From positions 128,001 to 192,000 of the forward strand of contig JBFWNL010000003.1 in assembly GCA_050251055.1 (NCBI GenBank): a DNA stretch of 64,000 bases, written 5' to 3'. Made by a program: the position numbers and the translations under genes. The DNA is from Bacteriovoracia bacterium. GTDB lineage: Bacteria > Bdellovibrionota > UBA1018 > JBFWNL01. The notes under the pieces are model-generated. The model had not been told where the DNA came from. It saw only the letters and a list, made by a program, of their open reading frames with translations, and ran no database searches. This document shows, one piece after another, positions 24,368 to 61,220 of this stretch. Within the stretch, counting starts at the first letter, position 1. The number at the start of each line of letters is the position of its first letter.

Positions 24368-24699
24368 AGTGAGCCTTTCTTATATAAGGTCCTAACCGTG
24401 TAGCCCCGCCGGAGTGGCCTTGTCAATCAAGTAACTTGCAAATGCCCGCTCTAACGGCGAACCCCCTGCTCCCGTAGGCCAAGCAAGGGGGGGGGTAAAA
24501 AGCCATCCCGCACCCATGACGCAAGTGGCCATCTGTTTTTAAGCCGAAATCCAGGGGAGTTCACTGGTTTTTATCATCAGTATTTTTAATTAACTTTTAT
24601 AAAATCAAATCATTTTATTGCATGAGCGATCTTCGGTAGAACCCACTTGTTCAAACGGACGGACCGGCGCTGATGCCGGCCAGATTTAGGGGAACAAAT

Positions 24700-25218: not shown

Positions 25219-25272
25219 TTCTCGGTTAGCTTGCTTAGCTAGAAAGACGGCGGCCATTCGAGCCGACTTTAA

Positions 25273-25306
25273 ACCAGCCTCCCCTACCGGGGAGGCTGGT
25301 ATTTTT
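25273..25306 (+). terminator. Intrinsic terminator
   Basis: ACCAGCCTCCCC-TACC-GGGGAGGCTGGT followed by ATTTTT. Confidence 0.8.
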
Positions 25307-25329
25307 ATTTCGTCGTCGTCAAATCCGAC

Positions 25330-26952
25330 CTAAAAGCCGGAACGAATTCGGGACAGTAGTTCGTAGATCACGGGATCCTGGGTACCCCGCCGCATTCGCA
25401 GCGCATTTTGGATATCCACAGAGGTGACCCCCACGTAGGGATTCTCGAAGCCGCCGGTCTGGAGCCCACTCACGGAGTACTGGGGCAGGCGTCCACCAAC
25501 CCGCGTGAATACACCATTCAGGCCGGGCCAGTCGAATACCTTCAGACCAGCGAAGACCACGCCATTGACGCCCACACCCGCGTCGGTGTGGAATTCCACG
25601 GCGTGCGAATCCGGGCTCGTGCCGCCCGCCTTTCGCGCGATGATCGTGTTCGTGATGCGGGCCGAGTGAATATGTTCCAGCCACATCCCCAGCCCGCGAC
25701 GCTCGATTCCTTGGGCGGTAACCACGTCATGAGCGTCCATGACGATGTTGCCGTCAGCGACCACGTCGACGCCATTGGACGGCGCCGGTGTATCGGGACA
25801 TCCTCCACAGAGCATCCCCAGCTGAAAACCCATGGCGGCGTCTACGATCAGGTTGTCGCTGAAAACACCCCCACCGCGGTGATGAGCGCCCCAGCCACCC
25901 GATCGCGTGATCAGGTTCTTCCGCACGGTCGAGATCGTGTCTTGCTGGATGTACATCGCCGTACCCCGCAGGTTGGCGGGACGCCCGTCATACATGCCGC
26001 CGCACTGGTCGAACACGTTCTCCTCCACGAGGATGTTTCCGTGATCTTTGGCCAAGTAGAGGCAGAAGTTACCGCCACCCGGATCCGAAGTGCTGGAGCG
26101 GGAAAAGATATTTCTCCGTAACGTCAGATCGGTGATCCCCTCGATGGCGACCAAGCTGGTCGCGTCATGGAAGTGGTTCCCCTCGAGCAAAAGATCACGT
26201 CCGCCGTCTACCCCCCACCGAAAGGCCGTGGCACAACCGGTGGCATCGACCTCGAGATCGGTCAGCGCGAGAAAACTCGATAGGCTGCCTAAGCCCGTGA
26301 TCGCGGCCTCATCGCATAGGGATCCCGGCGCGATGCGCGGGCGGGCGCCGGTACCATAGGCCGTGATCACTTGGCGTGCCGATGGGGAAACTCCCTTCTT
26401 AAGCCCCAACGACTCGCGCCAGGTATCGCCACGTTTTAAGTACAGATAGTCCGGCTGACCGCTGCGAAGCATGCTGTAGCCCTTAGCCAGCGTGCGATAA
26501 GGCAAGGAGATCGTCCCCGGATTGCTGTCACTTCCTGTACTCGAAGAAACGTAGATCATACGGGATGCAGAGCTAGGAACCAGGTCGGTCCAGCCCTGTG
26601 GGACGGGGGGCTCGATTCCGCAGACCGCGGGCTGGGGATCCGCCTGGTAAGCCCGAAAATTCTCGATGAAAGCCACAATGTCCAGCACATCCCCCTGCCC
26701 GTTGCCGTCGAAATCCACCGCCGGCTGAGCTGGGTTGGCGTTAAAAGCAGTGGAAAATGCCGTGATGTCGGAATTGTTCACCACCCCATCTCGATTGAAG
26801 TCCGGACATCGGAGGACCCGGAGCGGACTCGACGAGACCGGCGGATCAATCGGTGACGCAACCTTCAAACGGCGGGCTTCCGCCACCCCCCCCATAAGAC
26901 TCAAACTCAACCCTAATGCAAGGCAGCGAACGGACAAATGCAATGTTCTCAT
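25330..26952 (-). CDS. Secreted right-handed beta-helix protein with N-terminal dockerin-like Ca-binding repeat pair
   Basis: Signal peptide AEA; CPDFNRDGVVNNSDITAF and VDFDGNGQGDVLDIVAF; IYVSSSTGSDSNPG, LKRGDTW; beta-helix repeats (LEGNHF, RRNIF, EENVF). Confidence 0.75.
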   Translation of the reverse strand: MRTLHLSVRCLALGLSLSLMGGVAEARRLKVASPIDPPVSSSPLRVLRCPDFNRDGVVNNSDITAFSTAFNANPAQPAVDFDGNGQGDVLDIVAFIENFRAYQADPQPAVCGIEPPVPQGWTDLVPSSASRMIYVSSSTGSDSNPGTISLPYRTLAKGYSMLRSGQPDYLYLKRGDTWRESLGLKKGVSPSARQVITAYGTGARPRIAPGSLCDEAAITGLGSLSSFLALTDLEVDATGCATAFRWGVDGGRDLLLEGNHFHDATSLVAIEGITDLTLRRNIFSRSSTSDPGGGNFCLYLAKDHGNILVEENVFDQCGGMYDGRPANLRGTAMYIQQDTISTVRKNLITRSGGWGAHHRGGGVFSDNLIVDAAMGFQLGMLCGGCPDTPAPSNGVDVVADGNIVMDAHDVVTAQGIERRGLGMWLEHIHSARITNTIIARKAGGTSPDSHAVEFHTDAGVGVNGVVFAGLKVFDWPGLNGVFTRVGGRLPQYSVSGLQTGGFENPYVGVTSVDIQNALRMRRGTQDPVIYELLSRIRSGF

Positions 26953-27107: not shown

Positions 27108-28538
27108 ATGCCTATCTTTGCTTTCCTTTATTTTAGTTCCCTGTTTATCCATCCCAGCCAGGCGACGCCTGAAGCAATCGAACGCGCGCCCTTATTTATA
27201 GGCGAAAACGAACAGCGGGTTCTCCACTTGCCCGGCCTGAAGCGCTTCGCCCTAGGCTCCAACAGGGTCCGCATGACGGCGCTTCCGTCTGATCGTGACA
27301 CCTTCTTACTGAAAGGCGTGTCCGTGGGCGCCACCGACCTTTGGGTGTGGCGGAAAGCTGGACCGCCGGAGCATTGGCCAATCCAAGTCGAGAAATGGAC
27401 GGCCCCCAAGGAAATCCTACGGGCGGTTTCGCAGCTACGGGAAGTAGAAGTAATCCCCGTGGGAGGCCAGGCCGTACTACGGGGAACCATCCACACGCCG
27501 GGCGAGGCATCCCGCGTTCAAGCGCTCCGGCGCGAGTTTCCCCAACACATCACGGACGAGACCACGATCGATCCCGAGTGGCTTATGCGCGCGAAGGCAG
27601 AACTTGAAGCATGGAAAAAGCGGCTTCCCGCGCGCGTGGAGCTCGAGCTCGAACCAGTGGATGACCAACTTTGGTTGCGAGGCGCCGTCAGCGAGCCTTC
27701 GCTACGGGGGAGTTTAGAGACGCAAGCCCGACGCATTTTTCCACCCGTTCAACTGGATCTCGAAGCCCTTCCTTCCCCCAGTAAGACCATTTACTTTCGC
27801 GTTTTCCTGCTCGAGGTAAAACGCCAGGAATTCCAGTCCCTCGGCCTGGGCTGGCCGGGAGCGCAAGAAGGTTTCGTGCGCTTCGCGCCGGGCGCCTGGA
27901 ACACAAACTTCGATTTTAGCCTCCGGCTCCAAGCGTTGTCGCAAACCGGCGGGGTGAAGGTGCTCTCGAACCCCGAGATCCTCGTGCGGGCCCCCGGGGA
28001 AGCCGAGCTCTTCACGGGAGGTGAAGTCCCGCTGCGCCAGCAGAATCACTATATGTTCAAAGTGGAGTACCGACCGTTCGGCCTGATCCTCAAACTCAAG
28101 GTGACCCACTTCACCTCCACTACCGTGCGCTTTGACATCTCCACCGAAGTAAGCCAGCTCGACGCCCAAATCGGCCAAGACCAAATTCCTGGCTTCCAGG
28201 CCAACCGCATGAAAACGCAGATCGACGCCAAATTCGGGCATCCGCTGATGCTCTGCGGGTTGTTGCACGAGAGCATGCGCAGGCGGGTCCAAGGTCTGCC
28301 GGTGCTGAAAGACATCCCCGTACTGGGCAAGCTCTTCGGCTCGGAGGACTACCAAAGCGAGCGCTCGGAACTCGTGGCGGTGGTCATTCCCAACTCCCGT
28401 CCCCCCACCGCGCCCACCGAAAGGCTGGGATTGCACCTTCCCAGGGGCCCCGTACCCCCTCCTCGCAACTGGATCTCGCCAAGGGAAGAGGCCCACCTTC
28501 GACGAAGCCCCAATTTCCCATGGAATGCCTTGGAATGA
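27108..28538 (+). CDS. cpaC: Tad/Flp pilus secretin CpaC/RcpA-like
   Basis: Signal peptide; LKGVSVGATDLWVW, BON-like middle, VLSNPEI...FTGGEVP, GLPVLKDIPVLGKLFGS. Confidence 0.8.
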   Translation: MPIFAFLYFSSLFIHPSQATPEAIERAPLFIGENEQRVLHLPGLKRFALGSNRVRMTALPSDRDTFLLKGVSVGATDLWVWRKAGPPEHWPIQVEKWTAPKEILRAVSQLREVEVIPVGGQAVLRGTIHTPGEASRVQALRREFPQHITDETTIDPEWLMRAKAELEAWKKRLPARVELELEPVDDQLWLRGAVSEPSLRGSLETQARRIFPPVQLDLEALPSPSKTIYFRVFLLEVKRQEFQSLGLGWPGAQEGFVRFAPGAWNTNFDFSLRLQALSQTGGVKVLSNPEILVRAPGEAELFTGGEVPLRQQNHYMFKVEYRPFGLILKLKVTHFTSTTVRFDISTEVSQLDAQIGQDQIPGFQANRMKTQIDAKFGHPLMLCGLLHESMRRRVQGLPVLKDIPVLGKLFGSEDYQSERSELVAVVIPNSRPPTAPTERLGLHLPRGPVPPPRNWISPREEAHLRRSPNFPWNALE

Positions 28539-29482
28539 GCGCGTTCTCCGCTCCCCCGGAAATCCAGGCGGTAGTCGCGGATCCCTTCGTCACGGATATC
28601 TGTCTCAACGGCCCGAGCGAGCTTTATGTCGACCGGGGAAAGAAGCTCGAGTCCGCGCCAGCACCGACCGGCTGGACAGAAGCCGCCTATCGCGAATGGG
28701 CACTCCATCTGGTCTCGCTCACGGGCAAGACTTGGGACGCGAAGCATCCTTTCCTGGACGGCACGCTACCCACCGGACACCGCCTTCACGTCGCCTTCCC
28801 GCCCCTAGCCCGGCAAGGAATCCTGATTTCGTTGCGGCGCTTGCCGGGAGCCCGCTCGGTGGCCGCCGATGGGCCGTCGCGAACCTGGTCTGACCAACCC
28901 GGATACGCTCGATTGAGGGATGCCGTCACGCGCCACGAAAACATTCTGGTCGCGGGCGCGACCGGATCGGGCAAAACCACCCTGGTGAACGAACTCCTCT
29001 CTCATGCCGATCCCGCGGAGCGCATCGTCGCGCTCGAAGACACGCCCGAGCTGCAACCACGACACCCCCACTTCGTGAGCCTGATCGCGCGTCCCGCCAA
29101 CGCCGATGGCTTCGGCGAGGTCACGCTTCGGCAACTCCTGAAACAAACCCTACGCATGCGCCCGGACCGCGTGATCGTCGGGGAGAGCCGGGGCGAAGAG
29201 GTGCTCGATCTTCTGCAAGGCCTGAACACGGGCCACCGGGGGTGTCTCACCACCGTTCACGCCAATTCGGCGCGCGACGGTCTACGTCGCCTCGAGCTGC
29301 TCTGCCTGCTCCACGCCGGGCGCGAGCTCCCCCTGACTAGCGTCCGCGACCTGCTGGCGCATGGGCTGCAGTGGGTCGTCCACCTCGAACGAAACGCCGA
29401 GGGCGCGCGACGAATCCGGGAAATCGTACGGGTGGAGGGAAAGGAAGGGGATACCCTGTTACTTCGGCCGATGCTAAACTAA
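28535..29482 (+). CDS. cpaF: Tad pilus ATPase CpaF/TadA
   Basis: GATGSGKTT, EDTPEL, LRMRPDRVIVGE.RG, NTGHRG..TTVHANS; ATGA overlap with the secretin gene. Confidence 0.88.
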   Translation: MSAFSAPPEIQAVVADPFVTDICLNGPSELYVDRGKKLESAPAPTGWTEAAYREWALHLVSLTGKTWDAKHPFLDGTLPTGHRLHVAFPPLARQGILISLRRLPGARSVAADGPSRTWSDQPGYARLRDAVTRHENILVAGATGSGKTTLVNELLSHADPAERIVALEDTPELQPRHPHFVSLIARPANADGFGEVTLRQLLKQTLRMRPDRVIVGESRGEEVLDLLQGLNTGHRGCLTTVHANSARDGLRRLELLCLLHAGRELPLTSVRDLLAHGLQWVVHLERNAEGARRIREIVRVEGKEGDTLLLRPMLN

Positions 29483-49393: not shown

Positions 49394-51280
49394 TCAGCGT
49401 CGACCGGGGCCTGCGCGCAGCTCAGCTTTAGCGTCACTCTCGTCGAGTTCGAACAGATACTGCACAAGATCATTCAAATCGGCGTCATTCATCTTGTCAG
49501 GACCATGCGAACCGTTGCCATTTTTTTTAAGAAACACGTCTCGCAACGTCGCCGCCGAACCATCGTGAAAATAAGGCGGCGTCTGCCAAGCCCCTTTTAA
49601 TGTGGGCACATCGATGCCGACGAACGGCTGGCCCAGGCGTTGCCCGGTGGTCGGCTTGATCGTATCCACCATTCGCCGGGTCAGCGGCCCGCTGATGGTG
49701 AACTGCGGGCCCCCATGGCAGCTAGCGCAGTCGAACTTGCGGAAAACCTCGCGGCCGCGCTCCGCGACCGGAGATAAAGCTCCATTCGGAAGTCGGTACG
49801 GACTAGCCGGCGCCTGATCCAAAGTCGCAAAATAAGCGGCCAGCTGATCGAGCGCCTTGGACTTTCCCGCCTTAATGTCAACCGAGGGGTCCGCGTCGGC
49901 GTGAAAAGCGGCAGCCGGCATGAATCCGTGGCCACCAAAAGCCTTGCGCATGTCGTGCTCGAAATCTTGGATCTCGTTGAAATTGCCCGTCCAATGCACG
50001 GGCCCATGCCCAGTACCGCCCGGCCCGTTGAGCGAAATAGTGTTGCGCAGGCCTTCGCCGCGATCCCCAAAATCCCAAACGCGGCCATCTTGTCCGCCGT
50101 CCAGGTGGCAGGTGGCGCAGCTCATGCGGCCTTGCGCACTCATGCGGACATCGGCGGCGTTATGGAAAATCTTTTTCCCCGCGAGCACCGCCGCCGGCAA
50201 GGTCTCGCGCGTGATTAGCGACACCGTTTTGGTGAGCCGGATGGGTTCGCTGGCCAAGTTGTATATCGCCAGGTCGCGGGTCAGCCACTGCAACACGTAA
50301 AGCCGGGAATGCTTGGAATCGCGCGCGATCGCCAACGGGGCCCGTCCCGGTAGTTGGATGGGCGGGGAAAGCGGCGCCCCGCCCGCGATGGGGAGTCGGT
50401 CCAGCGTCTGCGTTCCCAAGGACGCGATCCACACGCGCTTACGATCGGACTCCGCCAGCGCAAACACGGGTAAATCCCGGCCGGGAAGCTCGCGCCGCTG
50501 CTCGGCGACCTCACGGCCCGTGGCGAGATCGATCTGCGCAACGAAGCCACGCGTGGTGAATTCAGAAGTGAGCGGTTGTCCGTCGCGGAATTTACCCCGG
50601 AATATGTTGTCGATTTTTCCCGTGACCCAGAGACGATCCGGGCTCTTCGTCACGGCTACCCCCAGCAAGTAGTTGGGCAAGCCCCGCATACGCTCGTGCG
50701 TGTCCGGGCCCTCACGCCGAGGCGCCAGCCTGAATACGCGAAGTAGCGCCATCTTCTCCGGATCGATCGCGTAGACTTCACCGCCCGAGTCAGGAGAAAT
50801 AAACCGAGCTACGTAAAGCACGCCCTGGGTGTCCTCGACCAATGCCCGGCCGGCCCCGGGGAGCGCAAGCCGCGCCGTCACCCGGCCTTCGCTCAAATCC
50901 ACCTTCAGCAACTCGGCCTTGGCTTCATCGCAGACCCAGATCCGATTTCCTCGCGTCACTAGGCCGAAGGGCAATCGACCATAACCCAGCTCGATTTTTC
51001 GCACGGACGGACGGCTGCTGTAGGGTTTATCGATGGTAGCCAGCGCGGACTCTCCCCGTAGGGAAATCACGAGACCTCCTCCGTTGGTCGGAGCAATCGC
51101 CCGGGGATCTCGTCCCACGGAGATTTCCGCGGCTTTCCGCAAAGTATGACGATCCACGGCGGTGATGCTACCCTGGTCGGGATTCACGGCCCAAACCGCA
51201 CGATCGTCCAGCCAAAGGGGCGAACCCTCGGCCGCCGTCGCGACGGGGCTAGCGAGCAAAAGCAGAATCCAGGCGAACAT
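49394..51280 (-). CDS. Secreted YncE-like beta-propeller fused to di-heme cytochrome c (CcP/MauG-like) domain
   Basis: Signal peptide; WAVNPD, VGRDPRAI propeller blades; CATCH and CASCH heme motifs; VPTLKG...PPYFHDGSAATL. Confidence 0.85.
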   Translation of the reverse strand: MFAWILLLLASPVATAAEGSPLWLDDRAVWAVNPDQGSITAVDRHTLRKAAEISVGRDPRAIAPTNGGGLVISLRGESALATIDKPYSSRPSVRKIELGYGRLPFGLVTRGNRIWVCDEAKAELLKVDLSEGRVTARLALPGAGRALVEDTQGVLYVARFISPDSGGEVYAIDPEKMALLRVFRLAPRREGPDTHERMRGLPNYLLGVAVTKSPDRLWVTGKIDNIFRGKFRDGQPLTSEFTTRGFVAQIDLATGREVAEQRRELPGRDLPVFALAESDRKRVWIASLGTQTLDRLPIAGGAPLSPPIQLPGRAPLAIARDSKHSRLYVLQWLTRDLAIYNLASEPIRLTKTVSLITRETLPAAVLAGKKIFHNAADVRMSAQGRMSCATCHLDGGQDGRVWDFGDRGEGLRNTISLNGPGGTGHGPVHWTGNFNEIQDFEHDMRKAFGGHGFMPAAAFHADADPSVDIKAGKSKALDQLAAYFATLDQAPASPYRLPNGALSPVAERGREVFRKFDCASCHGGPQFTISGPLTRRMVDTIKPTTGQRLGQPFVGIDVPTLKGAWQTPPYFHDGSAATLRDVFLKKNGNGSHGPDKMNDADLNDLVQYLFELDESDAKAELRAGPGRR

Positions 51281-51285
51281 GGAAG

Positions 51286-52038
51286 TTAATCCACCACCAT
51301 CAGGGAAGTGCGGCAGTTTTCACCCCAGGTGCTCGGAAGGGAAGCGCTCCCCCCGTCGCCACCCAGCGGCTCGTGCGCCGAAGATCCCGTGTTGCCTCCG
51401 TAACAGCCGCTCTTGAATCCCGCGTGAGCGGTACCGGATTGGCGCATCAACCGCGGTATTTCCGCGCTGGAGCGGATGCCCAAGAGCGATTCGATCTGCC
51501 GGCGGAAATTCAATCCGATCTGTACCAGCGACGCGCCCTCTCCCCCGCTGATCTGAATCCCGGCATCACCCGGGGAAGGCAGGAACTGGATCTGATAGCT
51601 GCCCGTGTCCGTAAACGTGCGAGAAGGCCCGTGAACCAAAACGCTATAGGGCGACAACTCGAGCGGATTGCAGTGACGAGCGACGTCTAAATCGATGCGG
51701 GAGTAGAGTCCTTCGCGTACCACACCAGAAAAAAGATCCGTGCCCGCGTAGCCGAAGCCAATCGACCGCTGAATCGGAATTTCAATCGGGGCTCGGCTGG
51801 GTTCCGATGACGACAACCCGAGAGAATTCACGCAGAACTGAACCGGTAGGTCGGCCTCTTCGTAACTCTCCGGCAGGAAATAGCCGTCCATGCGCAGATG
51901 CGCGACCACGTCTTCCGGTGTACCAACATCGATGCCGCCGCCGCCGGCGGAAACGGTATACGGTCTCGAGCACGCGGAAACGGCGAGCGTCGCCGCGAGG
52001 CTAAGCATGCGAATAATAGGAAGCAACAGTCCCCCCAA
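51286..52038 (-). CDS. Hypothetical lipoprotein
   Basis: Lipobox VSAC (start possibly 52008); 5 bp upstream of the cytochrome gene. Confidence 0.55.
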   Translation of the reverse strand: MGGLLLPIIRMLSLAATLAVSACSRPYTVSAGGGGIDVGTPEDVVAHLRMDGYFLPESYEEADLPVQFCVNSLGLSSSEPSRAPIEIPIQRSIGFGYAGTDLFSGVVREGLYSRIDLDVARHCNPLELSPYSVLVHGPSRTFTDTGSYQIQFLPSPGDAGIQISGGEGASLVQIGLNFRRQIESLLGIRSSAEIPRLMRQSGTAHAGFKSGCYGGNTGSSAHEPLGGDGGSASLPSTWGENCRTSLMVVD

Positions 52039-52137: not shown

Positions 52138-53691
52138 TTACCCCCCACACACCGTGGAGGGGTAGTTCGTGTCCGTGGCCGACAGGCATCCGGCTGGAAT
52201 CCACTCACCCTGGCTCCCACAACGGTACGTTTGGCTTGCTCCCACCGAACTCGAGCAGGTGTCGTCGTCCGCCGGCGAAAAAGCGACGAAGTCTTCCCGG
52301 CAGCGGGAGTTCTCGGAGTAAATTTGAAAACCCCACGTACAAGGTACCGGCTCGGCGGGTTTCCACGATTTCCGGCAGTCGTCACCAATGCAGATCTGAT
52401 CACATTCGCCCGCTTGGGTGCAGCTGGCTTCCGGCCGCCGACAGATCGGCGCAGGTGCCGCCGCGGTGAAGTCAAATCCATAGAGTGCTTCGTTCGCCCC
52501 CGTGCAAGCGAACGCCTGCGCCGCGAACGGATTGATGCCTGCCGGGTTGGCCACCGTGGAAGCCAGCGTCAAGTTCGTCGCCGAAGGCGTGATCGTCACC
52601 CCTAGGGTCCCTTGCAGATTTCGAAACCGATTCTGCTCGGGACTAAGTTGGCTTAAGCCGCCATAAATCGGATAAGCGTTCGGCACCGTACGTCCCTCCT
52701 CGACCTCGCGAAACGGCTCCAAGCTCCAACCCACCTGATCGCCGCAGATTGCGCCTTGGGGTCCGAAGCCCAGGAGCATTCGACGCGAGAAGGAGCGGTT
52801 GACCACGCCGACCGGACCGGGGATAAATCCCGCGGAGGCGCACCCCGACGCCTGCTCGGGACCCAAGAACTTCACCGACTCGAGCCAGCTTTGGCCGATA
52901 TCGAAAAAACGAGTCTGATAGAAAGTACCGGCGCCGAATGAAAGCGTATCGATCGAAGAGTCCGGCTGTACGTTCAAAAACGCATGGCCGCTGAGCATTT
53001 CCGAGCCGACCGCGAGTGAGTTTAAGGGGGGTGGGCTAAACGCGGATCCGGGCGATCGCGTCACTTGGAATTGGGAAAACTCACAAGTTTGTTTGCTCAC
53101 CACGTAAATCCCTCCGACGGCCGTGCAAAAGCTATCGTAGTTAGAAAGGCTCGGCCGGGTTTCCACCACGCATTCGGACAAACGGTAACGATCGGGCCCG
53201 GTCGCCACGGTTCGCACCGAGAACGGCACGCGCGCAACGAGCGGAAGCTTGCCTAAAGGACCACCCCCTTGCCTTTCGGCGGTGAGCTCCACCACGAGAT
53301 TCAGTTGCGGTGTCGGGCCCGCAAACGACACGCTGGTGGCGCGAAAACGCCAGTCCGTGAGCGTATAAGCGCGATTGCTCGATAACCCGCGCGGAAAAAC
53401 GAGATCAGTGTCGAAACGAAGCTCGTTTGGGCTAAACGGGATTTCAAAGGGCTGGAAAGATGCTTCCGTCGTGAGCTGAACCGTCCGCTCCAGGGCTGGC
53501 CAGGACGCCATCAGCGTAGCGCAGGTCTCACGCTTACCTAGGAGGTGACTCATCTCCCGCACGTCGGAGGCCCAGGTTTGTTGAACGTGGCTGCTTTGCA
53601 ATGCCAAGCGCTGGGACTTGCTCGTGCTCGCCAAACCCAGGGCGCCAATCACGAGGATGGACAATGCAATCAAGTAGGCTTCCAATCTCAT
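52138..53691 (-). CDS. Pilin-like/fibre-like Cys-rich protein C
   Basis: N-terminal hydrophobic helix; CTAVGG, LLGFGPQGAIC, FRNLQG, CDQICIGDDCRKSW; collinear with the two upstream paralogs. Confidence 0.7.
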   Translation of the reverse strand: MRLEAYLIALSILVIGALGLASTSKSQRLALQSSHVQQTWASDVREMSHLLGKRETCATLMASWPALERTVQLTTEASFQPFEIPFSPNELRFDTDLVFPRGLSSNRAYTLTDWRFRATSVSFAGPTPQLNLVVELTAERQGGGPLGKLPLVARVPFSVRTVATGPDRYRLSECVVETRPSLSNYDSFCTAVGGIYVVSKQTCEFSQFQVTRSPGSAFSPPPLNSLAVGSEMLSGHAFLNVQPDSSIDTLSFGAGTFYQTRFFDIGQSWLESVKFLGPEQASGCASAGFIPGPVGVVNRSFSRRMLLGFGPQGAICGDQVGWSLEPFREVEEGRTVPNAYPIYGGLSQLSPEQNRFRNLQGTLGVTITPSATNLTLASTVANPAGINPFAAQAFACTGANEALYGFDFTAAAPAPICRRPEASCTQAGECDQICIGDDCRKSWKPAEPVPCTWGFQIYSENSRCREDFVAFSPADDDTCSSSVGASQTYRCGSQGEWIPAGCLSATDTNYPSTVCGG

Positions 53692-53703
53692 ACGGTCGCT
53701 CCC

Positions 53704-55203
53704 CTAGGTATGGTCATCCCGACAAACCGGGACCCCTTCGCAGGGGCCCGTTTCGGCCGATGGCGCGCTCCAGGTTCCGTCGGGACGGCACGCGTGGAAC
53801 CGCGCCAAGCCGTTCGGCGGCTGGGTCGTAAAATCACACTGTGCCAGTCGGCAACGCGCGCCCGGGGAGTAGGCCAATCCCCCATCGCGGCAAACCGCGT
53901 CGGCGCCGGGCCGGACATTCCAGTCCCGACGACAATCCCCACCCAAACACACCTGCGCGCAGCTGCCGGGCCGGTCGCACTTCAGATCTCCCACCGTGCC
54001 CGTAGAAACGCAGATCGGCGTACGGTTTCCGTGAAAACCGACGAGCGTCTCGCCTGCTCCGCAGCTCACTTGCGTCGGCGGATTCACCTGGGAGAGGCGT
54101 AAGTTCGTCACCCCACCCGAAGCGTTTACCGAAACCCGGATCGGCGCGGCGCCCTCGAGCGCGCGCAGTAGAATCTGCGAGCTAGCGGGATCCTTGCCCG
54201 CGACCAGACTGGCCGTGCCGCCGAGGCTAACGGCGTTTTGCAGGGTGCGCGCGCCGCCGTTTTGATCCGGCTCGCAGATTAATCCTTGGGCGCCAATCCC
54301 GCGTAAGAGCTGGCCCGCCGGACAGCGTAGGTCCGCGGACGCGCTGACGGCGGGCACGCCGGCATCGCTCTTCAAGGAAACACTACCGCCATCATAGCGC
54401 GCCGTGACCCCAACTCCTTGATTCTGCGCCAACAAACGAACGTTTCGGGTTTCACTCCCCACGCTCAGTTGGTGATAGTTTTCTCCCGGCGAAAGCGCGC
54501 GCCGGAAAGAGGCGGTAGAAGTGACGCGCATTTCCGGAAACACGCATTTTTCCCGGGCAGGAGCCGTCGTGGTATCGACCAACCATTTGCCTCCCATCAA
54601 CCGGCATGCCTCCAGCGGCGACCGCGCCGCGCCTCGCATGTCGATGCATTCGTTGGCCCGGACGTTCGCGCCGGCAGGAATCGTCGAAACCCGCAGCGGC
54701 AAGGAGTAAAGCACGGAAGCCGCGCCGATCCGCTGCCCGCTCTTGGTCGCGGTCAATAAGACCGAAAGATCGTATTGGTTCGCGGGCAAGGGTTGAGCCG
54801 GATCCGCGGGCAACCCCACGGCGAAAAGCCCGTTGATCTTCAAATCGGTGCCGGGCACATCCCACGCGGCCGCGTTGGGTAGGCAAGGACCGCGGGCGAG
54901 AACCTGCTCCGATCCCGTGCCGATGTCGATTTTTTCCACGCATTGCCGCAGCGTCTGCGGCTGGGTGGGAGAAAAAACCACCGCCACGTTCTGCAGGAAA
55001 CGCGTGCACTGTTCCTTCGTATGCAGGACATTCTGAACTTGCGCGGTGAAGTCGGCCCACTGCGAACTCATCGCCACGTTGCGAACGGAGCGCTGCGTGG
55101 TGGCCCCCAGCTGCATCCACGCCAGCAGCAGCGTAGCAAGCACGGCATTCACCAAAACCGCGCCGATGATCGAAAAACCTCCGATGGATTTCCCCCGTCC
55201 CAT
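53704..55203 (-). CDS. Pilin-like/fibre-like Cys-rich protein B (class III signal-like, no Glu5)
   Basis: MGRGKSIGG|FSIIGAVLV; CRLMGG, CPAGQLLRGI..QGLIC, CGAGETLVGF, CAQVCLGGDCRRDW. Confidence 0.72.
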   Translation of the reverse strand: MGRGKSIGGFSIIGAVLVNAVLATLLLAWMQLGATTQRSVRNVAMSSQWADFTAQVQNVLHTKEQCTRFLQNVAVVFSPTQPQTLRQCVEKIDIGTGSEQVLARGPCLPNAAAWDVPGTDLKINGLFAVGLPADPAQPLPANQYDLSVLLTATKSGQRIGAASVLYSLPLRVSTIPAGANVRANECIDMRGAARSPLEACRLMGGKWLVDTTTAPAREKCVFPEMRVTSTASFRRALSPGENYHQLSVGSETRNVRLLAQNQGVGVTARYDGGSVSLKSDAGVPAVSASADLRCPAGQLLRGIGAQGLICEPDQNGGARTLQNAVSLGGTASLVAGKDPASSQILLRALEGAAPIRVSVNASGGVTNLRLSQVNPPTQVSCGAGETLVGFHGNRTPICVSTGTVGDLKCDRPGSCAQVCLGGDCRRDWNVRPGADAVCRDGGLAYSPGARCRLAQCDFTTQPPNGLARFHACRPDGTWSAPSAETGPCEGVPVCRDDHT

Positions 55204-55216
55204 CTCGTCCCCCTCT

Positions 55217-56668
55217 TCAACTTCCGCAAAGCGGCACCGTGGCGCGACCACAGCTGCGGCTCCACTGCCCGTTCGCTTCACACTGGTAGATCATCGCGTG
55301 CCCCACCCGTCGGCCTTGGCTGTGGCAGCTCGATCCGTACACTCCACTAGCGTCGTATTGCGGACGCGTTTCGCGGCAGCGCGCGCCCGCCGTATAGGAT
55401 TGACCCCGAAAAAAACAGGTGCGGGCCGTAGGAGCCGGGAACGACGCCCGGCAATCGCCGCCGATGCAGAGCTGGTTACATGCACCACCAGCCGTACAAG
55501 TCCGATCTAGGATTCCGCCCGCCGCCGCATTCCAATTCGGCGTCACGCAGTTCACCACGCCGCCCGCCTGCACGCCCCGGGCGACTTGACCCGCTGGACA
55601 AGGGCTCACTTCCCGGAAGCCTCCGACCGTCCCAACGACCACGCGCTCCGCATACTGGGTGACGGTAATGCCCGCGCCCGCCGTCAGTCCCTTGAATTGG
55701 AATACTCCGTTCGCGCCCGGAGTGACGTTCGCCAGCAAGGCATCCCCACTCCCTTCGCCGGATCCCGTGTAAATCGAAGGCGCCGCCGGGGACTCGGCGT
55801 CAGACGCGCATACCGCGCCCGTGGCATCGAACCCCACGAGCTTATTCCCCGCCGGGCAAGCCAGCGGAGGATCCACCCGCAATGCGCGCGTGGGCGCCGC
55901 CGACAGGGCGCTAGCGTCCACCGTCCATCGGCCAGGAAAGCCTTGCACGGTCGAAACCTCCACGATGCCCGTATCTCCCCGCGCCGAAACGTAGGCGCCT
56001 CCACGGGTGCCGACGAAAAGACTGCCCGGGGCACGGAGCGCGGGATCATTCAAAGTGGCGGGATCCGTGGAAACCACCAGTGAGCTCAGGGCACAATCCA
56101 CGCTACCGTCGCCATCGGAATCGGCGGGATCAAGCGCGCGACCGCCGGCCAGTCGGCAGATCTCCACATCGGAAAACTGGGCGTCGCGCGGCACGTCGCC
56201 CGCGCAGCGGCGCATGAGATACTCATCGCCTTGAACCTGTTCAACCGCCACGGTCAAGGGGAACTCCGTGCGATAAACGCGGGCGCCTGCCGTCGCGGGT
56301 CGGCGCGCCGCCACGTTCACCGCGAAGTGAAAAAAACCGGAGTCCCCACCGGATCGACCGCGTAACTCCAGCGCGTCGTAAACCACCCCCCCGGCTGTCC
56401 ACGTCGGAGGAACCGGAACGGAGATACGAACCGCCTCCAAGCTTCCGCCTACGCCCACGTTGAAAGTGCGGGTGGGCAAGGTTTCGAGGAAGGCCGTGCA
56501 GCGGGCCGGATCCAAGAGCTCCAGCTTGAGCTCCTGGATCCGGCGTTGCAGATGATGCCCGCCGTCCAAATCTCTGCCCTGGCGGTGACCCTCGGTCAAC
56601 ACGCTGGCTCCGGCGAAACTCACCGCCGCTACCATCGCTAGTCCGACCAAGAGTTCCCCCAGAGTCAC
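55217..56668 (-). CDS. Pilin-like/fibre-like Cys-rich protein A
   Basis: MTLGELLVGLAM pilin-like start; CRLAGG, CPAGNKLVGF..GAVC, FKGLTAGAGITVT, CNQLCIGGDCRASF. Confidence 0.72.
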   Translation of the reverse strand: MTLGELLVGLAMVAAVSFAGASVLTEGHRQGRDLDGGHHLQRRIQELKLELLDPARCTAFLETLPTRTFNVGVGGSLEAVRISVPVPPTWTAGGVVYDALELRGRSGGDSGFFHFAVNVAARRPATAGARVYRTEFPLTVAVEQVQGDEYLMRRCAGDVPRDAQFSDVEICRLAGGRALDPADSDGDGSVDCALSSLVVSTDPATLNDPALRAPGSLFVGTRGGAYVSARGDTGIVEVSTVQGFPGRWTVDASALSAAPTRALRVDPPLACPAGNKLVGFDATGAVCASDAESPAAPSIYTGSGEGSGDALLANVTPGANGVFQFKGLTAGAGITVTQYAERVVVGTVGGFREVSPCPAGQVARGVQAGGVVNCVTPNWNAAAGGILDRTCTAGGACNQLCIGGDCRASFPAPTARTCFFRGQSYTAGARCRETRPQYDASGVYGSSCHSQGRRVGHAMIYQCEANGQWSRSCGRATVPLCGS

Positions 56669-56681
56669 GTCACGTCTCCCT

Positions 56682-59600
56682 TCAGTTGTTCGTTAGGCCA
56701 AAACGGCGGTTCGGGGCGCCGATCATCATGTCTACTTCCTCGTCCATCGACAAGATCACGGTCTGAGTCTGTCCCGGATCACCGATGCGGATGAAGTAAC
56801 GACCTTCCCGCAACGACTGGCCGTTAGCCGACATCACTCGCGCCGATACTTCGTACAAACCCGGCTCCGTCCAGAGGAAGTAATAGTTCCCCGGAGTCGA
56901 TCCCGGCGTCACAACGCCGTCATCCCGGTGATAAGCGACCGTCGTGTTCGCCCCACCCCAGACGAAACAGTTCGCGCCGCCGAACTGGGAGGCGCATCCT
57001 CCCTGACTCGGACCGTAGACCACGCCGGGATAGGCGAAGCCGGGGTTATGCGGATCGAAGGGCTGGAACTGGCTTTGTCCCGGCGCTTTGTACGCGAGCT
57101 CGATACGTTCCGGACGGCATCCCGTCGGCACGGTCGCAAAGACTTCCGGGAAAACCTGCTCCGGATACGCCACGCCGCTGAGGTAGGAGTCGCCGACGTA
57201 CCGGCCGCCAAACCACTGACCTCCGCTCGACTGAATCGGCGCCGTAGGCGTCAGACCTTCGATGGTGATGGAATGGATGCGGCTGATCTGGCCGGTGAAC
57301 TGCGCCCAGCTGATCGTACGCACGTAAGGCGATCCGTCCGGGAAGTCGGGCGTGATCGGACCAATGGGGTCGAACGAGTGGATCCAGGGCCAATTGGCCG
57401 GACATGCCGCCGTCACCGCCTCCACCGTGAGGTTTGCCGTGCGGGTACCAACAACCGGCGTACCCGCGCTCGGATTCGATTGACTGCGGAACTCGAGCGC
57501 ATACGTACCCGGCGAAACATTGGGCACGTGCACGGGCAACGTCGGCTGGTTCCCATTGATGCTCAGGGCGAAACTCCACGCAAGGGGCGCTTGCGCATTC
57601 GGGACCGACGCACTGTAGACCACGCCCCGGCCCGGCCAGGACATCTGCACCGCGTACGGGAAACATGCGGCCGGAGGCGTCGATGCGAACTGTCCGGTCG
57701 CGCTGACCTGGGTTACCGCCTGCGCTCCCGATTCCGGGATCGTGGGCGGCGTGAACGTGAACGAGTTGAAGTTCAAACGCGGGCAGCTCGCCGCAGCGAT
57801 TCGCACGGTCGCCGTCGAGCTGTCACGCGACTGCGCTCCCAGCGTCACGCGGGCGTAATACCCGTGATCTCCGTAAGCAAGATCGCTATCGGCGGCGACG
57901 GCCGTGGATAGGGCCGTCGGTGGCGGCGTGGGCAAGTTGGGGCTATGGGTGAGATAGCTCGCCACGGTCACCGCCGAACCCCGAGGGGCCGCGGCTTCCC
58001 AATTCACGCCCGTGTATTGGCCATTGCTTACGCGACGAAGCACGCGGTCGCCGCCCGCGGCCGAACGCCGGATCTGCACCCGGTAGTCGCAGCTCGCCGG
58101 CAGGCTCTGATACTGAGCATTTACCGTTCCTTGAATCGTGAACTGCGCCGCACCTGCCTCGATGATCGCGGTCGGAGAGGCCGGGTTCACGGCGAGCGTC
58201 AGCTGGCTATAGAGCTCTTGCGGAGCCGGACAAGCGCGCACTTGTACCACGGCGGTGGTTTCTCGCCCCACATACTGGGCGAACTCCGGCGTCAGCGCCG
58301 GCCACGGCCCCAGGGCGGAGTACGGAGTCCAGCGTACACGCAGCTGGTAGTCACCCGCAGGAGCCGGGCCCGACGGATTGGCCGCCGGGAACGCTAGCGC
58401 CGCCCACACCGCGCTCACCGAGAGACTCTGGCCGGCTTCGCCGGGATTGATCACGCGGTCCACCGCGAAACTGTCGGAAAACTGCGGGCCCGGCGTGTAG
58501 CTTCCGAGCGACCCCTGTACCCCGGACGCCACGTCGTATTGAAAACGGTTCTGACCGCATCCCCAAGGGATCTCCGCCGACGAGGGTGCCGCCACCGAAA
58601 AGCTAGCCTGCGCGACCGAGCTAGCGCCTCCCCAGACCTGATTCGGCTGCGGGCTCAAGGCCAAATTCTCGGGTTGGCACTCGGGGAAGATTCGCAGGTA
58701 AAAGCGCACCGAACCCCGCTCGATCGCATTCAGCGATTGAAACTCCAGCAGCTGTCGCTTCACGATCGTGCCCGACTGGTTCAGGATGTCCGCGCCGTCG
58801 GTGATACGATCATAGATGCGGCGAGAAACCCGCCAGACTCGCGGTCCCATGTCCTGCTCGCCGGTGCCGGTCCAACCCCAGCCCTGACGTTGGGGGCTCG
58901 TCGGCAGCACGTTGACATAGAGCTCGCCGGTTGAAGGAATATTCGGGTGCTGGGTAACGCCGTAGTTCGACGGGCTAGGCTTACAGGTGATTTCCCACTT
59001 GGGCGGATTGGATCCGGCGATAATCCCAAAGGTCGGATTGTAGCGCTCACCCTCCCGAGGGCACTCACAAAGCGCGGGGTTCGACGGCGAATCGCAACGG
59101 TAGCGTACCGCCGTGGGCTCGAACACGAAGCTGCCACGGACGCTGCCACCACCCACGCTCTCGATATCTTGGGCAGGATTTTCCATCGCACCCCAAGCCA
59201 TACGTCCGCGGTTCCACTCGCTCGACGCCTGGGCGTCAAGCACGTATCCATTGCCGCCCGCGCAGTTCCCGTTCGCGTCGAGCTGACAGGCGCGCAGAAT
59301 GTTCGCGCAGGTGTGGTCGGACTGAAAGGAGCTACAAGCCGCCAGCTGCAGGGCGAACAGGCGCACGCCCTCGCCCACTTTAACGTCCAACACACGATTA
59401 GGATTCACGTCGTCACCACAGGCCGGAACGTCGGTGCGATCAGGCTGGATGAACTGCTCGAACCAGGGCCCCGTCAAGCCGTGCTGTAAATGCGACCAGA
59501 TCTGCTGCTCACGTTGGGCATCGAGATATTTACGATCGATCGGATCTTGGGAGTTTTGGCAAACAATAGCCGTACGCACGGGCGCGCCGCCCGTGGCCGC

Positions 59601-60047
59601 GTATACGTGCGCATAGATCGCGATCGTGCGAGGTTTATAGCACTCCCGGATCACGTCTCGGCAGCTCGGCAGCGGAGTATTGGGATCGTTATCGCAGCCA
59701 GGATTGCCGCAGAACTCGGGAAAGAGTTCGCGGGTGGTTGGATCGGCGCAGATCGGCACGGAAGGAAAGCTCGTCGGACCGGGCCCGCCCGGACCCGCTC
59801 CTCCGCCGCCACCGCCGCCTCCCGAAGTGATGCCAGTAATACCGCCGCCGCCTTCCTCGCAGTCGGTGGGCAGGGGGCCGCCTTGCTGACGCCGGCATTC
59901 GCAGTACGAGGGAAAAGGGCCAGAGCCGCCGAACGGGGCTTCGCCCGGAATCACGCCTCCATCAATATAGACGTCACAGCGAGGATCCACGCTCGCAAGC
60001 GCGGCGTGAGACACGAGCAACCCTAAGGCGAATAAAACGTACTTCAT
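56682..60047 (-). CDS. Large secreted Cys-rich multidomain protein (adhesin-like)
   Basis: ATG 60047 behind GGGGG; signal peptide ALA-S; Cys-rich N-terminus with poly-Gly linker; tandem beta-rich modules delimited by Cys-(x)-Pro. Confidence 0.75.
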   Translation of the reverse strand: MKYVLFALGLLVSHAALASVDPRCDVYIDGGVIPGEAPFGGSGPFPSYCECRRQQGGPLPTDCEEGGGGITGITSGGGGGGGGAGPGGPGPTSFPSVPICADPTTRELFPEFCGNPGCDNDPNTPLPSCRDVIRECYKPRTIAIYAHVYAATGGAPVRTAIVCQNSQDPIDRKYLDAQREQQIWSHLQHGLTGPWFEQFIQPDRTDVPACGDDVNPNRVLDVKVGEGVRLFALQLAACSSFQSDHTCANILRACQLDANGNCAGGNGYVLDAQASSEWNRGRMAWGAMENPAQDIESVGGGSVRGSFVFEPTAVRYRCDSPSNPALCECPREGERYNPTFGIIAGSNPPKWEITCKPSPSNYGVTQHPNIPSTGELYVNVLPTSPQRQGWGWTGTGEQDMGPRVWRVSRRIYDRITDGADILNQSGTIVKRQLLEFQSLNAIERGSVRFYLRIFPECQPENLALSPQPNQVWGGASSVAQASFSVAAPSSAEIPWGCGQNRFQYDVASGVQGSLGSYTPGPQFSDSFAVDRVINPGEAGQSLSVSAVWAALAFPAANPSGPAPAGDYQLRVRWTPYSALGPWPALTPEFAQYVGRETTAVVQVRACPAPQELYSQLTLAVNPASPTAIIEAGAAQFTIQGTVNAQYQSLPASCDYRVQIRRSAAGGDRVLRRVSNGQYTGVNWEAAAPRGSAVTVASYLTHSPNLPTPPPTALSTAVAADSDLAYGDHGYYARVTLGAQSRDSSTATVRIAAASCPRLNFNSFTFTPPTIPESGAQAVTQVSATGQFASTPPAACFPYAVQMSWPGRGVVYSASVPNAQAPLAWSFALSINGNQPTLPVHVPNVSPGTYALEFRSQSNPSAGTPVVGTRTANLTVEAVTAACPANWPWIHSFDPIGPITPDFPDGSPYVRTISWAQFTGQISRIHSITIEGLTPTAPIQSSGGQWFGGRYVGDSYLSGVAYPEQVFPEVFATVPTGCRPERIELAYKAPGQSQFQPFDPHNPGFAYPGVVYGPSQGGCASQFGGANCFVWGGANTTVAYHRDDGVVTPGSTPGNYYFLWTEPGLYEVSARVMSANGQSLREGRYFIRIGDPGQTQTVILSMDEEVDMMIGAPNRRFGLTNN

Positions 60048-60073
60048 GATTTTCCCCCAACCTTTAGAAAATT

Positions 60074-60157
60074 TTTCCAGCCGGAAGTTGATGACCGTTA
60101 TTGGGGCAAGGGCTAATTGGGCTCTGGGATTAGGCTCAGTCAACTTCCGGCTGGAAA
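60074..60157. repeat. Perfect 18-bp inverted repeat with 48-nt spacer in the leader of the large secreted gene
   Basis: TTTCCAGCCGGAAGTTGA (60074-60091) / TCAACTTCCGGCTGGAAA (60140-60157). Confidence 0.85.
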
Positions 60158-60239
60158 TTTAGGAAGACCGATCGCAAGTATCCGTTTCCGTCTTTTCAAA
60201 CCCCTCCGGGTTTTCGGGCTTCCTTGTTTAAGAGCATAT

Positions 60240-60389
60240 GACGCGATGCATTTTTTATCAAGTATTTTTTTAAATTTTGTTTATTATTATTTTTAAAAAT
60301 TAAATAAAATTTAAATATTTCAAATATTTAATAAACAAAATGAATCAAATATTTTACTTTTTTTATATTTTTTGTTAATCTATTAAAAG
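60240..60389. promoter_or_regulatory. Very AT-rich divergent promoter region
   Basis: About 140 nt almost entirely A/T in a GC-rich background, between divergent genes. Confidence 0.65.
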
Positions 60390-61220
60390 ATGAAACCGGA
60401 AGGAACTCCCCAGCTTTTCAAATACCATGACTATCGGGAGTTCCTGCGCGATTGGATTTCGCATCGACGAAACGCCCAGGGCGATACGGCAGCGGCCATC
60501 GCCCAGCGCGCGAAGCTGACGCCGGCATATCTTTCCATGGTTCTCCAAGGGAAGCGCCCCTTCACCCGAAGTGCAATCAAAAAGCTTCTTCCCCACCTTG
60601 GCCTGCCCGAAGCCCATTGGGACTTTCTCTTAGCCCTTTGGCAGCTTGCCGATGGCCGCACCCCGGCTTCGCGCACGGCCGCGCTCAAACGCATTCAGAA
60701 GTCACTCACCTACCGCCAAGAGAACCCTTCCGAGTTCGAGGTTTTCCAGTTCCTGAGCCATCCTCTATATCCGGTTTTGCGGGAGATCGCCGGCGTGCAA
60801 GGCTTTCGCGCCGACGCGCGCTGGATTCAAAAAAAATGTCGACAAAAAGCCAGCCCCAAGGAAATCGAAGCGGCGCTACAGTTCCTGGTGAAGCACGGAT
60901 TCCTTTTGGAAAAGGACGGCAAGATTCAGTATCCGGAAAAACCGCTTCGCTGTGCGGATCGCGTGTTTCGTCTGGCCTCGGCCGAATACCATCGCTTGCT
61001 CCACGAGCAAGCCGTCCGAGCGATTTACGATCTGCCCCACGAAGAAAAAAAGATGCGCGCGCAGACGATCGGGGTATCTCGCGAGACATTCGAAAAGGTG
61101 AAGGACCGTATCGACGCGTTCATGGATGAAATTTTCGCGCTCACTACCGCCGAATCCAAGCGGGAATCCGTATACCACATCCAACTCAACGCCTTCTTAG
61201 CCACGGAGCCCGGAGAATGA
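60390..61220 (+). CDS. TIGR02147/DUF4423-family putative transcriptional regulator
   Basis: FKYHDYREFLRDW, HTH (AYLSMVLQGKRP), YPVLRE, ADARWI, YH, C-terminal VYHIQLNAF. Confidence 0.85.
   Translation: MKPEGTPQLFKYHDYREFLRDWISHRRNAQGDTAAAIAQRAKLTPAYLSMVLQGKRPFTRSAIKKLLPHLGLPEAHWDFLLALWQLADGRTPASRTAALKRIQKSLTYRQENPSEFEVFQFLSHPLYPVLREIAGVQGFRADARWIQKKCRQKASPKEIEAALQFLVKHGFLLEKDGKIQYPEKPLRCADRVFRLASAEYHRLLHEQAVRAIYDLPHEEKKMRAQTIGVSRETFEKVKDRIDAFMDEIFALTTAESKRESVYHIQLNAFLATEPGE

Follow-up and report, generated by a model that had tools for sequence, protein, structure and literature searches.

Three collinear paralogs with a pilin module and cysteine-rich C-terminal halves in a Bdellovibrionota genome: candidates for a pilus-tip complex

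Three adjacent genes in the genome of a Bacteriovoracia bacterium raise the question of whether a type IV filament might carry a tip that is built from three paralogous, cysteine-rich proteins. The genes, which we call A, B, and C, lie on the minus strand of a window of 64,000 nucleotides (positions 128,001 to 192,000 of contig JBFWNL010000003.1, GenBank assembly GCA_050251055.1); coordinates below are those of the window unless another contig is named. An earlier note on this DNA, made from the sequence alone, described the genes as pilin-plus-tail-fibre paralogs and proposed that they form a heterotrimeric, disulfide-stapled adhesin at the tip of a pilus. In our view, A, B, and C are very probably modular type IV pilins. 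The larger explanation (a four-gene operon whose modular minor pilins assemble together at the tip of a pilus and act in adhesion) is the best that we can offer, and we hold it tentatively, at somewhat below even confidence. Type IV pili gain functions from modules that are grafted onto minor pilins, and very few modular pilins have been studied. What we say about the lifestyle of this organism comes from its phylum, Bdellovibrionota, alone.

Three divergent paralogs with a pilin module

The open reading frames (ORFs) and their parts are as follows, with the basis of each in parentheses. A slash in a sequence marks the cleavage site, and HMM stands for hidden Markov model.

55217..56668, minus strand: gene A, a probable modular pilin of 483 amino acids (aa) without a leader, with a GTG start, beginning MTLGELLV (ORF and alignment)
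53704..55203, minus strand: gene B, a probable modular pilin of 499 aa from its ATG, with the class III signal MGRGKSIGG/FSIIG (ORF and alignment)
52138..53691, minus strand: gene C, a probable modular pilin of 517 aa without a leader, with an ATG start, beginning MRLEAYLIAL (ORF and alignment)
56093..56668, minus strand: pilin module of A, residues 1-192 (AlphaFold2 model, PDB profile search, alignments)
55220..56092, minus strand: C-terminal Cys-rich half of A, residues 193-483 (alignment, cysteine map)
54544..55203, minus strand: pilin module of B, residues 1-220 (E = 4.9e-59 against the N-domain HMM)
53707..54543, minus strand: C-terminal Cys-rich half of B, residues 221-499 (alignment, cysteine map)
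53083..53691, minus strand: pilin module of C, residues 1-203 (E = 1.3e-52 against the N-domain HMM)
52141..53082, minus strand: C-terminal Cys-rich half of C, residues 204-517 (alignment, cysteine map)

The genes are adjacent and encode ~500 aa each, as the earlier note had it, and we recovered exactly the same ORFs, with 13 nucleotides between A and B and 12 between B and C. A three-way alignment runs over the whole length of the proteins: the other two are 28% and 25% identical to A, and cysteines account for 14 of the 62 invariant columns. Because the pairwise BLASTP E-values are 1e-13 (A-B), 2e-13 (A-C), and 4e-18 (B-C), the similarity is far beyond chance. The description of these genes as divergent, collinear paralogs is thus borne out.

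All of the motifs that had been quoted for the three proteins are present in each of them, in identical order. These include ARCTAFL in A (EQCTRFL in B and ETCATL in C), CRLAGG (CRLMGG and CTAVGG), and LFVG (LSVG and LAVG), as well as CPAG...C hairpins, a strand with its counterparts in B and C, a C..G.C.Q.CIG.DCR module, and a C-terminal knot. For instance, the C-terminal half of A consists of the LxVG region, a hairpin (C271-C287), the strand FKGLTAGAGITVT, a second hairpin (C357-C374), the C..G.C.Q.CIGGDCR module (C391-C406), and the knot (C418-C481). The first CPAG hairpin is degenerate in C, with 32 residues between its cysteines instead of 16 as in A and B.

The proteins contain 18 (A), 20 (B), and 18 (C) cysteines, in closely spaced pairs; B has one extra pair (C88/C107) in its pilin module. 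An even number in every chain fits with intrachain disulfides and an extracytoplasmic location. It does not indicate interchain staples, so the proposed stapling of the fibre by disulfides finds no support here.

Is the N-terminal region a pilin module, as had been suggested? To find its relatives, we ran an exhaustive HMMER search over 1.84 billion representative proteins, which gave 58 proteins at E ≤ 0.001; only the three proteins from the window scored below 1e-30. Several of the weak matches span positions 1-200 and open with class III signals (e.g., MRERMKG/FSLAEV or NPVG/MTMVEV). Pfam's N_methyl (PF07963) is found in 9 of 55 non-self distant relatives and in 10 of 34 paralogs from this genome, and two partial relatives from genomes of the same order also show canonical signals (a leader ending in Gly, then Phe or Met-x-x-x-Glu). 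When a profile of 55 modules was compared to the PDB, all 19 sequences with E ≤ 1 were type IV pilins or pseudopilins, and the best of these was geopilin (1.6e-8). AlphaFold2, given the 55-sequence alignment, modelled the module of A with a pLDDT (predicted local distance difference test) of 84.8, as a long helix (residues 3-62) and a four-stranded sheet whose strands lie within residues 95-157.

We consider the membership of A, B, and C in this pilin-module family to be established by sequence. The fold search is consistent with it and does not prove it: a comparison of the N-domain to known folds had been proposed as a check, and although the profile matches in the PDB were all pilins, Foldseek gave no match in the PDB for the N-domain model at E ≤ 0.001. 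In the structural comparison, the top rows are GspK and XcpV/W.

The module of A contains two cysteine pairs, C57/C155 and C171/C192, and two small disulfide loops are seen in the model. In the 55-sequence alignment, C57 is the sole invariant column and C155 is nearly invariant (at least 90%). In an alignment of 13 sequences, C57, C155, and C171 are invariant and C192 is nearly so. A maximum-likelihood tree of the 55 modules is star-like (34 of 52 inner branches are open), with A and C on long branches, so the age of the trio cannot be read from it.

The family is widespread and expanded. At E ≤ 1e-5, of 116 genomes from the order, 95 contain the pilin module; each of these has between 1 and 20 scored matches, and the ORFs that carry them are ~200-1000 aa long. 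A deeper HMM search of this genome found 57 ORFs at E < 1e-3, of which 42 span at least 140 profile positions. Most pilin-module genes are solitary, both in the order and in this genome. Among the 34 paralogs whose C-terminal heads we scanned, we found Peptidase_S74 (S74) in one, collagen-IV C4 in two, Gly_rich_2 in three, and Dockerin in one; most had nothing recognizable.

The sole S74 protein of this genome (G000:C2:443450-446116, or L056) has a prepilin N_methyl signal and matches Bd2133, a solved mosaic adhesive trimer (MAT) protein, at 3.4e-8; it appears to be a pilin-anchored MAT-like fibre. In five or more further genomes from the order, one ORF holds both the pilin module and S74. We also noticed collagen type IV C4/NC1 domains (PF01413) in two prepilin-headed proteins, G000:C6:138963-140285 (L064) and G000:C13:32959-34293 (L074), with E = 1.5e-35 and 3.2e-56. 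The NC1 domain of collagen IV is a trimer-selecting domain and is best known from animals.

The genome encodes filament machinery: two PilD-like prepilin peptidases, two PilC/GspF and two TadB/C platform proteins, and a PilA-like major pilin (G000:C6:269604-270221). We found no match to PilY1 (PF05567) in this genome, but the control genomes were equally silent, so this is uninformative. About 23 kb from the trio, at 27108-29482 of the window, a secretin with a T2SS-T3SS_pil_N domain is followed by a T2SSE-family ATPase. These belong to a Tad/Cpa-like pilus machine; two TadB/C-type genes lie elsewhere on the contig.

Missing leaders and shared fibre modules

Only B has a class III leader, which is basic and 9 residues long (MGRGKSIGG/F); A and C have none. 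In the alignment, the first residue of A (MTLGELLV) and that of C (MRLEAYLI) fall precisely where the relatives have the residue just after their cleavage-site glycine. At position +5, A has Glu5 (MTLGE) and B has Gly5; C carries Glu4 (MRLE).

Could these starts be misplaced? A GGGAG-type Shine-Dalgarno sequence lies 7 nucleotides before the start of each gene (GGGGAG for C). Upstream of the start of A there are only eight codons after a stop, and no start codon is among them; a TAG stop lies four codons upstream of the ATG of C, again with no alternative upstream start. The ORF of B extends upstream to a GTG at 55281, which overlaps A. The database entry for protein A (P0002, 472 aa) starts at an ATG that is 11 codons downstream of the GTG. 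We prefer the GTG because the downstream ATG would remove the conserved pilin N-terminus MTLGELLVGLA and because the GTG has the better ribosome-binding site. The unusual starts of A and C are read from one assembly.

Nearly all family members in this genome have canonical leaders. We found four leaderless pilin-module genes: A, C, C8:23436-24761, and C12:58724-59719. All four lie inside the three 3-gene pilin clusters of the genome, and none of the solitary genes is leaderless. We know of no natural leaderless pilin.

The other two tandem clusters of three pilin-module genes are both on the minus strand (G000:C8:23436-27542 and G000:C12:58724-61265). In both of them the last gene is leaderless, and its product starts with MNLAETMAAI (C8) or MYSILAMVIAL (C12). 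For the C8 members at 24748-26304 and 23436-24761, BLASTP gives no similarity beyond the pilin module, in contrast to A/B/C; within these two clusters, the BLASTP comparison covered this C8 pair only.

The C-terminal halves are harder to place. Their architecture has no full-length relative in this genome, in 40 relatives, or among the 1.84 billion representative proteins. In an index of 5.8 billion proteins, a profile of the trio returned the window's own proteins only (2 among 8000 scored candidates). The trio's pattern gave 66 matches in genome contigs and 94 in metagenome contigs, and the alignment of the C-terminal halves gave 76 pattern matches in viral contigs; none of these were confirmed. 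Searching 50,697 phage records with residues 340-483 of A (tblastn) gave no match, the C-terminal profile gave only three chance-level rows against PDB sequences (E ≥ 0.22), and an AlphaFold2 model of full-length A, with the three paralogs as the alignment, had a pLDDT of 42 and was unusable. No S74 match was found in A, B, or C in a Pfam scan. Shufflon_N (PF04917) is absent from all three at E ≤ 1 and is carried only by P0013, a distant mosaic relative. In the Protein Atlas, the feature clusters nearest to residues 200-483 of A are phage tail-fibre-like and shufflon-adhesin clusters (scores of 0.83-0.85, ~105 shared features), which we take as a lead only.

The individual modules are found elsewhere, including in non-pilin proteins (P0007, P0009, P0010, and others, as well as MAT-type ORFs). 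The last ~130 aa of A/B/C (hairpin, TDTRC..C.Q.CIG..CR.SW, and knot) make up the whole body of small proteins of 135-200 aa. Proteins of 1400-3500 aa have 13-17 stretches that match the strand-plus-hairpin unit. In other proteins, the C-terminal modules adjoin collagen triple-helix repeats (P0028), a YadA stalk (P0014), or S74 domains, and six further proteins pair a prepilin signal with these Cys modules. Stand-alone units of ~130 aa occur in P0007, P0010, P0011, P0021, P0030, P0031, and P0040, each with one N-terminal hydrophobic segment, a 'GH...E[IL]' motif, and one Cys hairpin.

For a comparison to MAT fibres, we picked Bdellovibrio-type genomes by their 10-16 S74 genes and took six MAT-type ORFs from one of these genomes (G201). 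Five of the six begin with a plain Sec signal peptide, which is followed by a conserved 'LTYQGRI..DG.PLEY.NVSF' domain; for the sixth, the start is ambiguous. All six contain the C..GQ...C hairpin, and three match the C-terminal HMM, with E-values from 1e-14 to 1e-6. We also considered whether the N-domains of MAT proteins might themselves be pilin-like, and we reject this on the evidence of the G201 ORFs: none of the six match the pilin HMM, and the Sec signal and MAT domain are present in five.

A/B/C thus draw on a pool of modules in common with MAT fibres but differ in how they are anchored. The label 'tail-fibre-like' is supported by this shared module context, that is, by the hairpin and other modules in common with MATs, and not by homology to phage proteins. 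The suggestion that the remainder of these proteins is of a tail-fibre or MAT type therefore holds up in part: the hairpin is present in all six MAT-type ORFs and the modules adjoin collagen, YadA, and S74 domains, but by sequence we found no phage protein.

Possible assembly at a filament tip, and the operon

What might these proteins do? The pilin module would let the type IV filament machinery lift A, B, and C from the inner membrane into a filament, and the disulfide-rich part of ~290 aa would be displayed at its distal end as an adhesive head. The three proteins would form one asymmetric cap at the tip, with their α1 helices bundled and their C-terminal halves side by side, and this cap would bind a ligand on a surface or on prey. 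B would be processed by the prepilin peptidase; A and C would enter with ready-made 'mature' N-termini. The incorporation of A/B/C into a pilus, their location at its tip, their co-assembly, and their adhesive function are all what we infer.

The co-assembly of A, B, and C is our preference, which could well be wrong. We favor it because the genes are coupled by gaps of 12-13 nucleotides, because the N-termini are not equivalent (a leader on B only, and no Glu5 in B), and because leaderless members are found only in 3-gene clusters. A prediction of the complex of the three C-terminal halves, made with our own alignments, scored 0.46, while no control scored above 0.05. At least 62% of contacts are common to the runs, and the pLDDT of the partner is at least 52. 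In calibration, 116 of 157 solved complexes and 2 of 215 mismatched pairs attained the mark for this score; of those that passed with a score of 0.60 or less, 18 were solved complexes, and both of the passing mismatches were among them.

Several observations weigh against this explanation. The score of the complex sits in a band that is more often wrong than right. It also cannot separate a heterotrimer from homotrimers of the paralogs, and the three chains shared nearly one alignment. The prediction of an A+B+C complex, which the earlier note had proposed as a check, thus gives weak support for the C-terminal halves and does not discriminate between these forms. The register among the three proteins is not strict, because the spacings of the modules differ by up to ~16 residues. 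The conservation of the C-terminal architecture is untraceable, with no relative of the same architecture in any collection that we searched, and A, B, and C themselves have no match in Pfam (E ≤ 1, including N_methyl), NCBIfam, or PHROGs. A and C may never enter a filament, because they have neither a leader nor the Gly-1 cleavage site by which prepilins are defined. In the tandem arrays that we inspected elsewhere in the order, every member retains its leader.

The number three does not seem to be special either. Among 150 listed matches from across the order, there are ~15 tandem pairs and 2 triples (this locus and G062:C264), and the S74-type arrays are pairs, triples (G031:C23 and G084:C9), and one row of four genes (G003:C87). 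Because the tandem copy number varies across the order, three is not a conserved number. The earlier note had looked to conserved triplets and had named random copy numbers as what would speak against its proposal; for the pilin-module family, copy number is variable and there is no conserved triplet.

Alternatively, A, B, and C might be modular minor pilins that do not assemble with each other. The tandem genes would then be a duplicated repertoire of alternative tip adhesins that widens the range of ligands, with each protein capping a filament alone, as a monomer or as a homotrimer of the kind known from CofB/TcpB or S74 fibres. We consider this to be plausible but doubtful. The family is large and fast-diverging (42 near-complete members in this genome alone, besides its spread across the order), most of its members are solitary, and arrays of two, three, and four genes exist. 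Identities of 25-28% with a conserved architecture fit with diversifying duplicates, and the weak score of the complex is equally expected from paralogs that form homo-oligomers. Also, S74 domains, which occur in family members, are chaperones of homotrimers (PMC10769870), and MATs as well as the Kil Tips have been described as sets of recognition proteins that are redundant and interchangeable (PMC10769870, PMC12075869). On the other hand, equivalent adhesins would be expected to carry the same kind of targeting signal, but B alone has a leader, and every leaderless member belongs to a 3-gene cluster. The coupling by 12-13 nucleotides suggests that all three proteins are made in fixed proportions, and this locus is unlike simple arrays of duplicates, whose members all kept their leaders in the arrays we inspected.

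A third explanation is that these are not filament subunits: the N-terminal helix of A and C, and perhaps of B, would serve as a signal-anchor to the inner membrane, with the Cys-rich part at work in the periplasm or envelope, for instance in a scaffolding or receptor role that involves the upstream secreted protein, the downstream lipoprotein, and the di-haem peroxidase described below. Although A and C have no prepilin peptidase site, N_methyl matches none of the three, and the neighbors are envelope proteins, we think that this is highly unlikely, as the N-termini of A (MTLGE...) and B (G/FSIIG) agree at every residue with the consensus of processed and unprocessed pilins, the entire module of 200 aa, beyond the helix, is common to dozens of proteins with canonical prepilin signals, and the downstream genes are 99 nucleotides away with their own promoter-like site.

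Returning to a co-assembled tip, a bolder version, which we consider to be unlikely, is that this lineage builds asymmetric caps from trios of modular pilins, some of them leaderless. A and C would then be the first natural leaderless type IV pilins. They would bypass the prepilin peptidase and N-methylation and would fix the order or the end of assembly, and the C-terminal halves would make one heterotrimeric, pilus-mounted counterpart of a MAT. A single fibre made of the trio would, if it exists, offer a compact way to study how heterotrimers are specified in beta-rich fibres. The confinement of leaderless members to 3-gene clusters also provides a testable handle on the order of the tip complex, and on whether cleavage of the leader is obligatory for the assembly of pilins.

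The surroundings of the three genes include the following features:

56682..60143, minus strand: large, Cys-rich, secreted protein, whose gene opens the putative operon (ORF of 1153 aa; an ATG at 60047 is the likely start and gives 1121 aa with the signal peptide MKYVLFALGLLVSHAALA)
60233..60378, minus strand: candidate operon promoter, three promoter-like sites upstream of the 1153-aa gene (consensus scan)
60390..61220, plus strand: helix-turn-helix (HTH) and DUF4423 regulator, divergent, a candidate regulator of the operon (Pfam DUF4423, 1.8e-25; HTH_31)

The gaps between A, B, and C and their matched Shine-Dalgarno sequences suggest that the three are co-expressed. The 1153-aa ORF ends 13 nucleotides before gene A, and the putative operon has four genes: the one for this large secreted Cys-rich protein, then A, B, and C. 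The Protein Atlas entry for the ORF begins at its residue 33. We found no Pfam, NCBIfam, or PHROG family for it, no homolog in the 116 genomes of the order, and no feature cluster in the Protein Atlas that scored above 0.76. By analogy with PilY1, TcpF, and CofJ, we conjecture that the 1121-aa protein could ride on the tip. The promoter scan of the region found 5 sites, as compared to 3.0 ± 1.5 in shuffled sequences, which is not significant alone.

Look-alikes of the DUF4423 regulator adjoin three other modular-pilin loci (G000:C2:446229-447128, C11:9807-10724, and C8:20275-21150). These were judged by their N-terminal sequences; Pfam was run on the copy in the window only. The presence of HTH-DUF4423 genes at four modular-pilin loci may reflect locus-by-locus regulation of the adhesin repertoire. 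More broadly, ~42 modular pilins with S74, collagen-IV NC1, or orphan Cys-rich heads point to a large, individually regulated repertoire of pilus-mounted adhesins.

A lipoprotein gene (51286-52038) lies 99 nucleotides beyond C and has its own promoter-like site. It is followed by a gene for a secreted protein of 628 aa (49394-51280) with an N-terminal beta-propeller and a C-terminal part that resembles di-haem cytochrome c peroxidases and MauG; this protein, whose gene sits between two lipoprotein genes, has a weak similarity to the gamma subunit of hydrazine synthase that is far below the cut-off. Because of the 99-nucleotide gap and the separate promoter-like site, the lipoprotein and propeller/peroxidase genes are probably a separate unit. 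The G+C content is 0.64 over 54-60 kb, as compared to 0.54-0.61 in most of the window and 0.51 at 60-62 kb. There are no tRNA genes in the window, and we saw no mobile-element gene near the operon.

Comparison with known systems

The earlier note did not recognize this combination as a described system, which was overstated. Modular minor pilins at the filament tip, pilin plus S74 (PMC8179133), and 3-gene heterotrimeric pilin tips in a predator (PMC12075869) were already known. Modular pilins were catalogued by Raynaud et al. (2021, PNAS), with PilB and PilC of Streptococcus sanguinis as the prototypes, and N_methyl plus S74 (IPR030392) is among the frequent architectures in that catalogue (PMC8179133). 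As in those proteins, A/B/C have C-terminally grafted modules that are not specific to pilus biology, a location at the tip is expected, and the S74 paralog in this genome has the catalogued architecture. In contrast, the grafted modules of A/B/C have no database signature, are Cys-rich, and occur also in MAT-type fibres and in small anchored proteins; only one of the three has a class III leader; and the pilin module here, with its two disulfide loops, comes from a lineage-specific family that has ~42 copies in this genome.

Heterotrimeric tips of minor pilins include GspI/J/K of type II secretion, PilA/B/C of S. sanguinis, and the KilL/M/N 'Tips' of the Kil/Tad system of Myxococcus xanthus (PMC12075869, PMC8179133). 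The Tips, which were described in 2025 in this predator, are heterotrimers encoded by 3-gene clusters, of which there are four (KilL/M/N); they are disulfide-rich and are linked to prey recognition (PMC12075869). Here, too, we find three adjacent pilin-like genes, one without Glu5 (as in known tip pilins such as GspK; PMC8179133), and several paralogous 3-gene clusters in the genome, along with many predicted intramolecular disulfides and a proposed role in the recognition of prey or surfaces. But the subunits of those tips are different proteins, while A/B/C are collinear paralogs with the same order of modules. Also, the signals in the family of A/B/C are of the type IVa pilus/type II secretion type, not TadE/F, and a complex of A/B/C is weakly predicted, for the C-terminal halves only.

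CofB and TcpB of type IVb pili and PilV of IncI1 thin pili resemble A/B/C as large minor pilins whose C-terminal domains serve adhesion at the tip. The trimers that CofB and TcpB form are homotrimers of one gene product. Neither CofB nor TcpB was matched when our profile of the A/B/C pilin module was searched against the PDB, and A/B/C are unlike PilV in lacking Shufflon_N. The modular build of CofB has been described (PMC8179133).

The fibres of Bdellovibrio bacteriovorus known as MATs (Caulton et al. 2024, PMC10769870) are likewise mosaic, fibre-type surface adhesins with a large and variable repertoire, and they have the C..GQ...C hairpin in common with A/B/C. MATs are trimeric beta-helical fibres that end in an S74 or other tip, and they have a Sec signal peptide and a conserved, beta-rich N-domain of ~130 aa, where A/B/C have the pilin module instead; A/B/C are also without an S74 domain or a detectable beta-helix region. 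No paper in a limited collection of literature was seen to connect prepilins to MAT or S74 fibres of predators, and 'pilin' appears 0 times in the MAT paper (PMC10769870) and 0 times in a 2026 review of Bdellovibrio. A pilus-mounted repertoire in relatives of predators would parallel the Sec-exported MAT fibres of Bdellovibrio, with modules in common. What is new here is an orphan, Cys-rich head architecture that is common to three collinear paralogs and has a module link to MAT fibres, together with the size of the family in this lineage and the natural leaderless pilin modules that are restricted to its 3-gene clusters.

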